A stretch of DNA of 64,000 bases. Source: Vicinamibacterales bacterium. Lineage in GTDB: Bacteria > Acidobacteriota > Vicinamibacteria > Vicinamibacterales > UBA2999. Under the pieces are notes generated by a model. The model worked only from the letters and a program-made list of their open reading frames with translations, ran no database searches and was not told the DNA's origin. The stretch covers positions 4,025 through 68,024 of the forward strand of contig DASRPM010000104.1 of NCBI GenBank assembly GCA_035646375.1, read 5' to 3'. Position 1 is the first letter of the stretch; every line of letters begins with the position of its first letter. The position numbers and the translations under genes are program-made. Below are positions 57,057 through 61,881 of this stretch, in pieces.

Positions 57057-58406
57057 CTACGACGGGTCGCGCGCGAGGCCCAGCGAACGGATGCGCTTGT
57101 GGAGATTGGTGCGCTCGATGCCGAGCAGGCGGGCGGCGCTCGAGACGTTCCAATCGGTCTGCTCGAGCGCCTGGCGGATGCGCTGGCGCTCGGCGGCGTC
57201 GCGCGTTTCGTGCAGGCCCGATGGCCGCTCCGCCGACGGCATCCGGATTTCGATCGGGACGGCGTCGGCCCCGATCCGATCGCCCGAACTCAGGATCGCC
57301 ATGCGCTCGACGGCGTTGCGGAGCTCGCGGATGTTGCCCGGCCACTCGTAGCGCTCGAGCAGCGCCAGCACGTGGTCGTCGATCGTCTTCGCCCGGAAGT
57401 TGTTGCGCGTGCAGAACTCGCCGAGGAAGTAGGCGGCCAGGTCGCGAATGTCCGGCACCCGCTCGCGCAGCGTGGGCACGCGAATCGGCACCACGCTCAG
57501 GCGGTAGAACAGATCCTCGCGGAACTTGCCCTCCGCGATGCGCTCCTCGAGCCGCCGGTTGGTGGCGGAGATGACGCGCACCGACACGCGGATGGCCTGC
57601 TCGCTCCCGAGCCGCTGCACCTCGCCGTCCTGCAGCACGCGCAGCAGCTTGGCCTGCGACGCCTCGTGCAGGTCGCCCACCTCGTCGAGGAAGATGCTGC
57701 CGCCGTCGGCCAGCTCGAACTTGCCGCGGCGCATCGTGGCGGCGCCGGTGAACGCGCCGCGCTCGTGGCCGAAGAGCTCGCTTTCGATGAGCTCGGTCGG
57801 GATCGCCGCGCAGTTGACCTTGATGAACGGACGCGACGCGAAGGGGCTCTCGCGGTGGATGTGCGCGGCCAGCAGTTCCTTGCCGGTGCCTGACTCGCCG
57901 GTGAGCAGCACGCCGGCGTCGGACCGCGCCACCTGCGTGGCCTCGGTGAGCGCGCGCCGGAAGGCCTCGCTTCTGCCGATCATCTTCGGTGCGTCGCCGA
58001 CGAGCTCGCGGAAGCGCTGGTTCTCGCGCTGCAGGTCCGAGCGCTCGAGCGCGTTCTTCACCACCAGGAGCACGCGGTCGCGCGCGAGCGGCTTCTCGAG
58101 GAAGTCGAAGGCGCCGCTGCGCGTGGCGTCCACGGCGTCGCGGATGGTGCCGTGCCCCGAGATCATCACCACCGGCGTGGAGTCGTCGCTCTGACGGACG
58201 GCGCGCAGCAGGTCGATGCCGTTGCCGTCGGGCAGGCGCACGTCGACCAGGTAGAGGTCGGCGCGTCCGGGGCTGCGCTGGGCCTGGAACTCCGCCACCG
58301 ACCCGCAGATCGTCACGGCGTAGCCTTCGCCTTCCAGGATGAGGCGCAGCGACTTCCCGATGTTGGGCTCGTCGTCCACGATGGTGATCCGGTGTTTTCT
58401 GGTCAT
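57057..58406 (-). CDS. Sigma-54-dependent response regulator (NtrC/NtrX type)
   Basis: Receiver motifs (IVDDEPNIG...DVRLPDGNG), AAA+ motifs ([14 protein letters not shown]), and a Fis-type HTH C-terminus. Confidence 0.9.
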
Positions 58407-59788
58407 TGATGTCTGGGAAGGATCACCCGGAAGCCGGCGCCGCCGAGCGCGCCCTCGACGAGCGCGATGTCGCCGCCCATGCGCAGCGCGTTCTTCTTGG
58501 CGATGGAGAGCCCGAGCCCCATCCCGTGCTTCTTGAACGTGATGGTCGGCTCGAAGAGCGTTCGCGCGGCCTCCTCGCCGAGGCCAGGCCCCGAATCGTG
58601 CACCTCCATCGCGACGTCGTGTCCGTACACCCGCGTGGTTGCCTCCACCGTACCGCCTGGCCCCGCCGCCTCGGCGGCATTCTCCAGCAGGTTCGTCAGG
58701 ATGCCTTTCACCAGGTCGGCGCTGGCAAGAACCGCCGGTACGTGCGCGTCGAGCGTGCAGCGGTAGGTGGTGTCCGGATGCGCCGGCCTCAGCAGCGACA
58801 CACGCTCGCTGACGATGGCGTTGATATCGAGCGGTTCGGCGTTCACGGGCGGCTCGCTGGCGAACTCGGAAAAGGCACGCACGCGGCGCTCGAGGGTTTC
58901 AATCTCGCCGATGACAATCTGCGCGGCCTGCTGCATGAACTCGCGGTCGCTCTGCGGCTGGCGTGCCACCATCTCTTCCACCGTCAGCCGGATCGGCGTC
59001 AGCGAGTTCTTCAGCTCGTGCGCCGTCTTGCGCGCCAGCGTTTCCCAGCTGGAGATCTGCGTCAGATAGACCAGCCGCTCGCGGTTGCGCCGCAGGTGCT
59101 CCGCCATGTCGTTGAACGCCGTCACCGCGCGCCCGACTTCGTCGTCGCGCGTCGTGGCCAGGCGCTGATGCCAATCGCCAGCCGCGAAACCGGTGAGCCC
59201 CGCCGTCAGCTCCTGAATCGGACGGCTGATGCGATGGGCCATGAAGAGGAGGGGGACCAGCGACACCAGCCAGACGACCGCCACCAGCAGGAGCAGGGTG
59301 AGCGTGAACCCGCGCTGGAGATCGCGCCCTTCCGTCGCGCCCACCAGCTCGCGCACCTGGCGCAGCTGTCCTCCGAGCTCCTCCATCTGAATGCCGCCGA
59401 GGTCGCGGCTGTAGACGTCCACGCGCGTGCCGGCGCGCGTCATGTAGTCCAGACGATCGCCGCCGGTCCCCGACAGGGTGAACCGTGCCGGCTCGCCGCT
59501 GATCCAGAAGGTGCGGACGGCGTCGGGCACGTTGCCGGCGGCGTCCATGTCGAACGAGGTGAAGCCGACCCGGCCGGTCTTGGCGTCCCGTTCGAGCGAC
59601 AGCCGCTCGCGTTCGTAGAAGCGGCGGACCGTGGCCTCGAGCGTCCGCGACAAGCCGTCGAGCTCCCCGGTGGTGGCATAACCGAGGCTGCGCTCGAGCA
59701 GCGACATCGTGATCCAGATCGTCGCGCCGAGCGGCAGCAGCGTGGCCACGAAGAACGCCGCGACGAGTCGAGTGCGGAGGCTACGCAC
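58403..59788 (-). CDS. NtrY-like sensor histidine kinase (2 TM, HAMP, HisKA, HATPase)
   Basis: GTG start. TAHELKNSLTPIRLTVEEM; NLLENAAEA; GMGLGLSI. Confidence 0.85.
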   Translation of the reverse strand: MRSLRTRLVAAFFVATLLPLGATIWITMSLLERSLGYATTGELDGLSRTLEATVRRFYERERLSLERDAKTGRVGFTSFDMDAAGNVPDAVRTFWISGEPARFTLSGTGGDRLDYMTRAGTRVDVYSRDLGGIQMEELGGQLRQVRELVGATEGRDLQRGFTLTLLLLVAVVWLVSLVPLLFMAHRISRPIQELTAGLTGFAAGDWHQRLATTRDDEVGRAVTAFNDMAEHLRRNRERLVYLTQISSWETLARKTAHELKNSLTPIRLTVEEMVARQPQSDREFMQQAAQIVIGEIETLERRVRAFSEFASEPPVNAEPLDINAIVSERVSLLRPAHPDTTYRCTLDAHVPAVLASADLVKGILTNLLENAAEAAGPGGTVEATTRVYGHDVAMEVHDSGPGLGEEAARTLFEPTITFKKHGMGLGLSIAKKNALRMGGDIALVEGALGGAGFRVILPRHQ

Positions 59789-60376: not shown

Positions 60377-61881
60377 AACCGCACCCCCATCATGAAGGTC
60401 GCGCCGGCTCCCGGTGCGTCCAGCGGGAAGGCGACGGTCAGGAAGACATGGTCGGTGTGAAAGCCGAAGCCGGTGGACGCGCGAAGGTCGTGGGGACGGC
60501 CGTTCTCCCACACCGAACCCGCGTCGAGAAAGAGCGCCGCGCCGTAGAAGCGGTATTCCAGCGACTGATGAAAGACGCGGTTGCCGCCGATCGGCGCCAG
60601 ATCGAACTTGTTCCAGCCGCGCAGGGTGGCCGAGTCGCCGAGCGTGAATCGCTCGAACAGCGGCGCCTGGCCGGTGATGCCGCCCCCGAAGACCTCGGCG
60701 ATGATGCCTGTATGGCGGCCGTTGAACTGGTAGCGCGCCCGTGCGAGATGGCGTGTGTAGCTGAAATCGCTGCCGAAGCCGTCGACCGACGCCCGCAGCT
60801 CGTACCCGGCCTCGACGGTTTGCCGCGTGCGCCGGTCGCGGTTCAACCGCTGGCTGTACACGAGTGCGCCCGTGACCACGCTGGCCATCTGCGAGTCCGG
60901 CGAGTGGTGCAGCGACTCGAGGCTCGACAGGCTGAGGCCGCCGCTGGCGCGGACGTGGCGGGTGAGCGCCACGGTGAGCTGCGGCTCCACCGTGATGCGC
61001 TGCCGGTACGGTTCGGGAACGGCTGGATCGGCCGCGAGCGCCGCGAGCACCGGCGCGCGCCACGTGTTGTTCAGCCACGACGCCTCGAGGCTGGCGGCCA
61101 CCCGGTCGGTGCCGAGGTGCCGCGACTCGAAGCGGACGCGGGCGCCGGAGTACTCCTCCACCAGCGTGTCGTTGTCGTCGAGAGCGAACCCGACCGTGAC
61201 GCGATGGTCGCGGCGGCCCATGGGGATGTCGTGCAGGCCGCTCCAGCCGGCGTCGGAGTGGTAGACGAACTTCGAGCGTGATTTCGCGAACGGAATCCAG
61301 CGCCGCCCTTCCGATTCGGTGAACTCGAAGACGACGTGGATCCAGCCCCGCCGCGTGCCGCGCTCGATGCGGCGCGAGACGTCGTAGCCCGGTTGCTCCC
61401 CCTTCAGCGCCTCGATCAGCCGGTCGGCCTCGGCGGGATCGAGCCGGGTGCCGACGAGCGCCTGCAGGCGGTCGCGCAGCGCCGCGCTGATCTCATGGTC
61501 CTTGAGCCCTTCGATTTCGACGCTCTCCACCACGTAGCGGGCGTTGATGTTCGTGCCCAGGCCGGCGTCGTCGCTGATGCGCGCGACCAGGAAGAACACG
61601 CGCACTTCGCCCCCGTCGCGGGGGTCGATGCGCATCGCCACGACGACCTCGGGGCGCTCTTCCTCGATGCGGCGGGCGAGCTGCGAGAGGTCCGGGCGGG
61701 CCAGCGCGCGCCCCACGAGGGCGTCGATGTCGCGGCGCAGGCCTGGACTGAGCTCGTCGGACGGCACGCCGACGACCTCCGCCGACTGGATCCGCGCGCC
61801 GTCCCAGGGTTCGGAGTCCTGTGCGGCGGCCGGACGCGGCGCCACACCAACGAGGCAGAGGAGCAGGATGAGGGTTCGCAT
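60373..61881 (-). CDS. Omp85 (BamA/TamA) family outer-membrane protein with POTRA-like N-terminal repeats
   Basis: Signal peptide; I-E-G POTRA-type segments (VVESVEIEGLKD); C-terminal barrel ending ...GATFMMGVRF. Confidence 0.8.
   Translation of the reverse strand: MRTLILLLCLVGVAPRPAAAQDSEPWDGARIQSAEVVGVPSDELSPGLRRDIDALVGRALARPDLSQLARRIEEERPEVVVAMRIDPRDGGEVRVFFLVARISDDAGLGTNINARYVVESVEIEGLKDHEISAALRDRLQALVGTRLDPAEADRLIEALKGEQPGYDVSRRIERGTRRGWIHVVFEFTESEGRRWIPFAKSRSKFVYHSDAGWSGLHDIPMGRRDHRVTVGFALDDNDTLVEEYSGARVRFESRHLGTDRVAASLEASWLNNTWRAPVLAALAADPAVPEPYRQRITVEPQLTVALTRHVRASGGLSLSSLESLHHSPDSQMASVVTGALVYSQRLNRDRRTRQTVEAGYELRASVDGFGSDFSYTRHLARARYQFNGRHTGIIAEVFGGGITGQAPLFERFTLGDSATLRGWNKFDLAPIGGNRVFHQSLEYRFYGAALFLDAGSVWENGRPHDLRASTGFGFHTDHVFLTVAFPLDAPGAGATFMMGVRF

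Follow-up and report, generated by a model that had tools for sequence, protein, structure and literature searches.

The subject of this analysis is a group of four genes in a 64-kb stretch of DNA from a Vicinamibacterales bacterium (contig DASRPM010000104.1), here called the window, whose coordinates are used throughout unless another locus is named and whose G+C content is about 70%. Read along the minus strand, these genes encode an Omp85-family outer-membrane protein of 502 amino acids (aa; 60373-61881), a secreted, periplasmic protein of 194 aa remotely resembling the DUF4390/PlrP proteins (59792-60376), a sensor histidine kinase of 461 aa (58403-59788), and an NtrC-family response regulator, i.e., a bacterial enhancer-binding protein, of 449 aa (57057-58406). 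The evidence strongly indicates that the four genes are a single conserved, tightly packed same-strand unit, and the module that they form is widespread in Acidobacteriota. We class it as a two-component system that has a third component in the periplasm and, in addition, a dedicated Omp85 protein, all under sigma-54 autoregulation. Each kind of component is known (Omp85, a DUF4390-type accessory protein, a HAMP kinase, an NtrC-type activator, and sigma-54 promoters); their combination looks undescribed, and full-text literature searches that combined Omp85 with sigma-54/kinase or NtrY returned unrelated papers only, those on LIC11548 and on Vicinamibacter with sigma-54 returning nothing. As the best explanation overall, we tentatively propose a self-activating, sigma-54-dependent envelope-signalling module in which the Omp85 protein serves as a relay partner, a reading to which we would give a little under an even chance.

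The conserved gene unit and its proteins

As to the chain itself, the original prediction had described four minus-strand genes joined by overlaps and a gap of 3 nucleotides (nt), and all of these agree with the list of open reading frames and with the raw sequence. The TGA stop codon of the Omp85 gene is overlapped by the TTG start of the 194-aa gene, resulting in a TTGA overlap, the GTG start of the kinase gene is positioned 3 nt past the stop of the 194-aa gene, and the kinase and regulator genes meet in an ATGA overlap. Forty-three related loci were compared, 38 of which were fetched first (six through metagenome look-ups and 32 from species-representative genomes), the other five representing a distant branch, for which the query was a homologue in a metagenome-assembled genome (MAG) labelled as Bryobacteraceae; one match is on an assembly of 5.56 Mb. 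All of the hosts belong to Acidobacteriota, mostly to Vicinamibacterales, with the Bryobacteraceae-labelled branch in addition. The order Omp85, small protein, kinase, regulator, whose conservation had been put forward as a check of the original prediction, is kept on one strand in all 43 loci, as far as the contigs reach. The arrangement is far beyond chance. The flanking genes, on the other hand, are unrelated between loci. At each of the three junctions, stops and starts overlapping by 1, 4, or 7 nt are seen repeatedly across the family. In the distant branch, the small protein shares approximately 30% identity with its counterpart in the window, Omp85 shares 32-36%, the kinase 49-58%, and, in the loci that have one, the regulator 65-70%; in one of these loci (L039, 7703-11075) a regulator gene was not detected after the kinase gene. 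The sizes of the two envelope protein families are similar, the relatives of the small protein numbering 730 at 90% clustering (405 clusters at 50%) and those of Omp85 numbering 785 clusters.

Some sequences appear to be fusions of Omp85 with the small protein, or of the small protein with the kinase (P0179, P0185, P0187, P0199, P0251, P0253, and P0254). They contain arginine-rich, out-of-frame stretches and are frameshift or assembly artefacts; they do not count as Rosetta-stone evidence. Frameshifts in this GC-rich operon are found on many long-read MAG contigs (L008, L012, L031-L033, L036, and L038), and they give rise to false 'fusion' proteins in public collections.

The 502-aa protein is a member of the Omp85 superfamily, by its PF01103 score, its 16-strand barrel, its POTRA-like domains, and its L6 motif. 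The profile match to Bac_surface_Ag (PF01103), one of the checks proposed for it, reaches 46.7 bits over residues 247-471, the gathering cut-off being 24. An AlphaFold2 (AF2) model built from 34 homologues, with a predicted local distance difference test (pLDDT) score of 84, displays a signal peptide, two beta-alpha-alpha-beta-beta units resembling POTRA domains (approximately residues 30-101 and 117-189), and 16 barrel strands. The region of the L6 loop carries the motif ERFTLGDSATLRGW, of the RGW type, in which L420, R421, G422, and W423 are invariant across the 34 sequences. The nearest folds in the PDB are those of BamA and TamA (E down to 3.5e-18), and the BamA-RcsF structure 6t1w is among the matches; a Pfam search for POTRA domains and a sequence search of the PDB gave no match for this protein. 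It is, however, neither of these two insertases. BamA proteins possess five POTRA domains and are about 800 aa long, and TamA proteins possess three POTRA domains and are encoded next to tamB. The window protein has two POTRA domains in its 502 residues and scores 27 bits against the BamA equivalog TIGR03303 (cut-off 297.15) and 15.4 bits against the TamA equivalog NF047950 (cut-off 625); no gene for a Bam lipoprotein or for TamB adjoins it, and a TamB/DUF490 gene was present in none of the loci inspected. It thus shares with BamA and TamA the 16-strand barrel, the POTRA domains, and the RGW-type motif, and differs from them in being encoded behind a sigma-54 promoter and together with a two-component system. 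In the distant branch the Omp85 proteins are shorter still (417-435 aa) and align only from about residue 108, apparently lacking the first POTRA domain and so possessing a single one.

The 194-aa protein had been predicted to be a periplasmic one, and it does appear to be secreted, with an N-terminus resembling a signal peptide and a conserved mature end that begins with AQS. Its likeness to DUF4390 (PF14334), suggested for checking at the outset, is recurrent, and all of the scores remain below the Pfam threshold of 27 bits: the protein itself matches profile positions 9-142 of 161 with 15.1 bits (E=0.016), of 48 distant members of the family, 19 give matches at E<=1 (the best at 2.4e-4), and the consensus of the family scores 25.6 bits (E=9.6e-6). 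As DUF4390 is the sole Pfam family to recur for this protein and its relatives, we regard the protein, from its sequence, as a probable remote relative of DUF4390/PlrP. Its AF2 model (pLDDT 79) has no significant fold match in the PDB, and the profile of its family found no match among PDB sequences. PlrP is the periplasmic third component, as defined by genetics, of the Bordetella PlrSR system, where it restrains the phosphatase activity of PlrS through the periplasmic domain and is proposed to act on PlrS itself (Wolber et al. 2026, PMC13001219). In beta- and gamma-proteobacteria, according to that study, a DUF4390 gene adjoins nearly every good homologue of plrS, and no outer-membrane partner of PlrP is mentioned (PMC13001219). 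By the context described in that study (signal peptide, size, and gene position), the window protein is well placed: it has a signal peptide, a length of about 200 aa, and a gene directly 5' of those for a periplasm-sensing HAMP kinase and an NtrC-family regulator.

The kinase and the regulator had been labelled as being of the NtrY/NtrX type, and this label is to be dropped. The kinase, whose transmembrane segments were read from the sequence and whose domains were taken from Pfam, consists of a first transmembrane segment, a periplasmic domain of approximately 130 aa, a second transmembrane segment, HAMP (182-233), HisKA (250-310), and HATPase_c (359-459). HAMP is directly followed by HisKA, and no PAS domain was matched in Pfam even at E<=10. 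Among the NCBIfam models, those of the LIC_11548 family, AtoS, and ZraS score highest for the kinase, all below cut-off. The regulator is an NtrC-family enhancer-binding response regulator, with Pfam matches to Sigma54_activat (233 bits), Response_reg (88.7 bits), and HTH_8 (47.5 bits), thus combining a receiver domain, a sigma-54 AAA+ domain with an intact GAFTGA motif, as read in the translation, and a Fis-type helix-turn-helix. NtrX proteins have a degenerate sigma-54 contact motif and are not known to carry GAFTGA. The regulator scores 394 bits against the NtrX model NF051870 (cut-off 600), and the NtrC and AtoC models are likewise below cut-off; indeed, both proteins fall below every NCBIfam equivalog cut-off, including those of NtrX, NtrC, AtoSC, and ZraSR.

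The promoter region upstream of Omp85

The promoter region argues that the module is very probably a sigma-54 operon with a dedicated upstream site. A near-consensus -24/-12 element, TGGCGCGCGGCTTGC (61895-61909, minus strand), of the GG-N10-GC pattern (TGGCAC-N5-TTGC-like), ends 13 nt before the ATG of Omp85 and is conserved at orthologous positions; when the 64-kb window was scanned with a position weight matrix (PWM) of the Omp85 promoters, this element was the sole match. All 26 loci with readable upstream sequence possess an element of this type 13-14 nt from the ATG, and in all 26 the signal peptide of Omp85 begins at this promoter-proximal ATG; a clear element is also recognized in the distant-branch locus L041 (7681-12257). 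Transcription from a sigma-54 promoter is expected to start about 12 nt downstream of the GC, and since the element ends 13-14 nt before the ATG, the Omp85 transcript should be leaderless or nearly so.

Further upstream, 89 nt before the ATG, is a 17-bp palindrome of the TGTGA-N7-TCACA type, here TGTGACGCCTCGGCACA (61954-61970, assigned to no strand), which occurs as a single copy in the window. In 23 of the 26 loci it is placed 87 to 89 nt before the ATG, and it is also kept in the distant loci L039, L041, and L042 (7684-12323), with few matches elsewhere in the loci. It is located approximately 80 bp before the point at which transcription of the operon is predicted to start, and approximately 80 nt from the -24 element of the divergent gene. 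We regard it as a candidate upstream activator site, to which the regulator encoded in the operon itself would bind. Extra copies of the palindrome were noted in locus L024; the two that were examined are intragenic and are regarded as chance matches. Between the palindrome and the -24 element there may be a site for the integration host factor (IHF), as the motif GATCAACAACTTG (61915-61927, minus strand) resembles the IHF-type sequence WATCAANNNNTTR; an IHF-like GATCAACNACTTG motif is present between palindrome and promoter in the closer loci and is weakly conserved in the distant ones.

On the opposite side of the shared upstream region, a sigma-54-type promoter, GGGCAAGCAATCTGCA (62042-62057, plus strand), precedes a divergent gene, whose ATG is 26 nt downstream, following a GGAGG Shine-Dalgarno sequence. 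This promoter is kept as CGGGCA..N..TGCAGTGG in seven of seven aligned intergenic regions, in which conservation does not extend to the DNA separating the motifs. It was missed by the PWM of the Omp85 promoters and recovered by a looser pattern, as was that of the pyrophosphatase gene described below.

Co-transcription of the four genes, as had been predicted, fits with a sigma-54 promoter directly upstream of Omp85 and with a simple, crude scan that recognized no sigma-70-like promoter inside the operon. An internal promoter separating Omp85 from the kinase genes had been named as grounds for refuting the arrangement. This would be a weak argument, as a self-activating sigma-54 operon would be expected to have a weak constitutive promoter for its kinase and regulator genes, one that would leave the module intact. 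No rpoN gene is present within the window. A further GG-N10-GC match, TGGCCACGCTGCTGC (59734-59748, minus strand), lies within the 5'-terminal portion of the kinase gene and is probably due to chance or a by-product of the coding sequence.

A possible envelope-signalling role and its alternatives

In the mechanism that we propose, the phosphorylated regulator would bind the palindrome and would then activate sigma-54 RNA polymerase at both promoters, amplifying expression of its own operon in a layout like that of zraP/zraSR. That the operon is activated by its own regulator is probable; it is proposed because the palindrome and the sigma-54 promoter precede an operon whose regulator is the only enhancer-binding protein encoded in the neighbourhood, with a second sigma-54 promoter back to back with the first. 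The 194-aa protein would act, in the periplasm, on the sensor domain of the kinase, setting the balance of kinase and phosphatase activities, as proposed for PlrP acting on PlrS. Such modulation of the kinase appears reasonably likely, given that the position of the gene matches that of plrP. The Omp85 protein would be the outer-membrane partner of the small protein, its POTRA domains binding or releasing the latter depending on the state of the outer membrane or on the flow of unfolded outer-membrane proteins, and outer-membrane conditions would thereby reach the inner-membrane kinase. The strict one-to-one linkage and the translational coupling of the Omp85 and small-protein genes, judging from their sequences, favour a working partnership. 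We would put the Omp85 protein as a sensing arm, rather than an output, at slightly less than an even bet, and we consider it rather doubtful that capture and release of the DUF4390-like protein by the POTRA domains sets the activity of the kinase and of the sigma-54 activator, with Omp85 as the receiver of the signal. If this latter reading were true, it would represent the first signal-transduction pathway built on a dedicated Omp85 paralogue, DUF4390 proteins would be general messengers of envelope state, and sigma-54 promoters yielding leaderless mRNAs would come as a side feature.

Several points weigh against the proposed mechanism. The evidence fits equally well with Omp85 as an inducible insertase that is the main regulated output, and the protein-protein contacts within the module are hypothetical. 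The proteobacterial DUF4390 systems work without an Omp85 protein, so the barrel is unnecessary for the basic relationship between PlrP and its kinase, and the DUF4390 match itself is below threshold for both the single protein and the family consensus. As to transcription, a strictly self-activated sigma-54 operon needs basal expression, yet the crude scan showed no internal promoter; the promoter of the low-GC locus L042 has no clear GG, with TGA at the position expected for the GG of the -24 element; and the start site that would make the Omp85 transcript leaderless is a predicted one.

The alternatives differ mostly in the role assigned to the barrel. Were Omp85 an output, the kinase and the PlrP-like protein would by themselves sense an envelope cue, and the regulator would raise a stress-inducible BamA/TamA-like insertase, along with a Toastrack-like protein, for repair or remodelling of the outer membrane, the Omp85 gene belonging to the operon only as its main target. 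Such a scenario, to which we assign a limited probability, well short of even, would suit the place of Omp85 as the first gene behind an inducible sigma-54 promoter, and its conserved L6-region motif and complete 16-strand barrel are as in a working insertase. Precedents exist as well, in the ZraPSR system, whose induced genes include a periplasmic accessory protein (PMC4987338), and in the proteobacterial DUF4390 systems, which need no barrel (PMC13001219). It is less well served by the gene content of the loci, as no substrate or partner gene (TamB-like or for an outer-membrane protein) travels with the module, and by the persistence over very large distances of the one-to-one linkage and of the overlap between the Omp85 stop and the small-protein start, which is more typical of cooperating subunits, without being decisive.

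Export is another role to consider, in which Omp85 would be a TpsB-like exporter or anchor displaying the 194-aa protein on the cell surface, with a periplasmic backlog of this protein reporting export failure to the kinase. TpsB proteins are built of two POTRA domains and a 16-strand barrel, and the same domain count in the window protein, along with the adjacency and translational coupling of the two genes, speaks for such a role; the details, however, do not. The top 50 fold matches are those of BamA and TamA, with FhaC missing from among them, the AF2 model is without an N-terminal plug helix, there is no ShlB/POTRA_2 signature in Pfam, and the protein encoded next to it, where a TpsA with a two-partner secretion (TPS) domain would be expected, is the DUF4390-like one of 194 aa, which has no TPS domain. 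Furthermore, the distant-branch Omp85 proteins apparently lack the first POTRA domain, and the site of action proposed for the homologue PlrP is the periplasm (PMC13001219). A TpsB-like export role is thus less likely, and we consider it improbable. Finally, an ordinary NtrY/NtrX system for nitrogen or redox control, with Omp85 as a functionally unrelated neighbour, could be imagined from the high, even if sub-threshold, scores with the NtrX and NtrC models and from the DUF4390-like gene before the kinase gene, as in beta-proteobacterial ntrYX loci (PMC13001219). This is already contradicted by the kinase without PAS, the GAFTGA motif of the regulator, the equivalog scores that are all below cut-off, the linkage to Omp85 in 43 of 43 loci where the contig reaches, and the sigma-54 promoter and palindrome preceding Omp85, leaving it a very slim chance.

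Among the known systems closest to the proposed envelope-signalling module is PlrP-PlrS-PlrR. Both have a gene for a small secreted DUF4390-type protein directly 5' of, and often overlapping with, the kinase gene, the gene for an NtrC-family regulator coming next, and in both the periplasmic domain of the kinase is the proposed target of the small protein. The differences are that the kinship of the window protein with DUF4390 is remote and sub-threshold, that its kinase has no PAS domain, unlike PlrPSR of the NtrYX family, that its regulator is a true sigma-54 activator with GAFTGA, that the upstream gene encodes Omp85 here and is rsmB there, that the entire unit is behind a sigma-54 promoter, and that the hosts are Acidobacteriota here and Proteobacteria there. 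With ZraPSR the module shares the back-to-back sigma-54 promoters with a common upstream region, one for its own operon and one for a divergent gene for a periplasmic protein. In Escherichia coli and Salmonella, ZraR drives both of the divergent promoters, and periplasmic ZraP feeds back on the system (PMC4987338); feedback on the kinase by a periplasmic accessory protein is what is also proposed here. In contrast to ZraPSR, no protein of the ZraP/CpxP/Spy type is encoded at the window locus, the accessory gene is part of the operon, which encodes an Omp85 barrel as well, the divergently encoded protein is Toastrack-like, and the proteins score far below the cut-offs of the ZraS and ZraR models.

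A comparable logic is known from the RcsF-BamA-IgaA and YfiB-YfiR-YfiN relays, in both of which a component of the outer membrane retains or frees a periplasm-facing regulator that controls a signalling protein of the inner membrane. The module would share this logic, its own interaction being hypothetical, with entirely different parts: the sensors there are lipoproteins and here a dedicated Omp85 paralogue, and the output there is the Rcs phosphorelay or a diguanylate cyclase and here a sigma-54 activator. TonB-dependent transducers with their anti-sigma and extracytoplasmic function (ECF) sigma factors likewise couple an outer-membrane barrel genetically to a transcription factor through an envelope-spanning chain, a likeness anticipated by the original prediction. 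The window system, however, has no TonB box, plug, signalling domain, anti-sigma factor, or ECF sigma factor, and its barrel belongs to the Omp85 insertase class and not to the 22-strand transporter class.

Omp85 proteins have been studied as insertases and translocases, and the occurrence, throughout a phylum, of a paralogue tied to a two-component system suggests one of two things: a hitherto undescribed way in which the outer membrane is monitored, or an insertase that is dedicated and inducible. The locus also carries the idea of PlrP/DUF4390 as a 'third component' beyond Proteobacteria and adds a candidate outer-membrane partner, making DUF4390 function more testable. The unusually clear layout of palindrome, -24/-12 element, and ATG 13-14 nt downstream offers ready reagents for reporter and binding assays, and it suggests that leaderless transcripts are made from sigma-54 promoters in Acidobacteriota, a phylum of soils that is abundant and little studied.

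The divergent gene and the neighbouring genes

The divergent gene is found where it had been predicted (62083-62700, plus strand), and it encodes a protein of 205 aa with a signal peptide. That the protein is secreted is thus upheld; its description as DUF4097-like holds only as a weak resemblance, with a Toastrack/DUF4097 match of 11.2 bits (E = 0.23; gathering threshold 22.9) and matches of 12.4-15.9 bits (E 0.009-0.1) in three of the four homologues scanned. The Toastrack domain has been associated in the literature with the Psp/Lia envelope-stress systems. Only in the closer Vicinamibacterales loci is the module found together with this gene.

At the other end of the chain, the double terminator of the original prediction corresponds to two GC-rich hairpins with UUCA loops, 3' of the regulator stop codon (56987-57042, minus strand). 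The hairpins are real features, with a folding energy of -56.8 kcal/mol for the region (z = -4.06) and a sequence unique within the window; their status as a terminator is inferred, as neither has a U-tract and a terminator scan made no call there. They likely mark the end of the operon. The two are near-identical and are situated between the stop codon of the regulator gene and the promoter of the next gene, and they could serve to terminate transcription, to stabilise the RNA, or as a binding site.

The product of the next gene after the operon (56243-56978, minus strand) is an inorganic pyrophosphatase (PF00719) whose N-terminus resembles a signal peptide. A sigma-54-type element, TGGCCCGCGTGTTGC, is positioned 13 nt before the ATG of this gene, in the same geometry as in the Omp85 promoter. 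In L008 (11300-11345), the only other locus in which a pyrophosphatase gene was detected after the regulator gene, cGGCTCGCGCTTTGCA is found 16 nt before the ATG. No copy of the palindrome was found near these pyrophosphatase promoter elements. Beyond it (54847-56265, plus strand) is a gene for a zinc alcohol-dehydrogenase-like protein (ADH_N and ADH_zinc_N) with a twin-arginine-like signal (SRRGLLKRGATAAA...AAAQG), whose sequence suggests export by the twin-arginine translocation pathway, unusual for that enzyme family. Upstream of this dehydrogenase gene are two divergent genes for proteins of 173 aa (53709-54230, minus strand) and 193 aa (54253-54834, plus strand), both with signal-peptide-like N-termini and neither with a match in Pfam. 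On the far side of the divergent Toastrack-like gene, a protein of 350 aa with a hydrophobic N-terminus, possibly a lipoprotein, and with Ig-like domains of the Big_1/Invasin_D3 type is encoded at 62713-63765 (minus strand), and the open reading frame following it (63744-63998, minus strand) runs off the end of the window.

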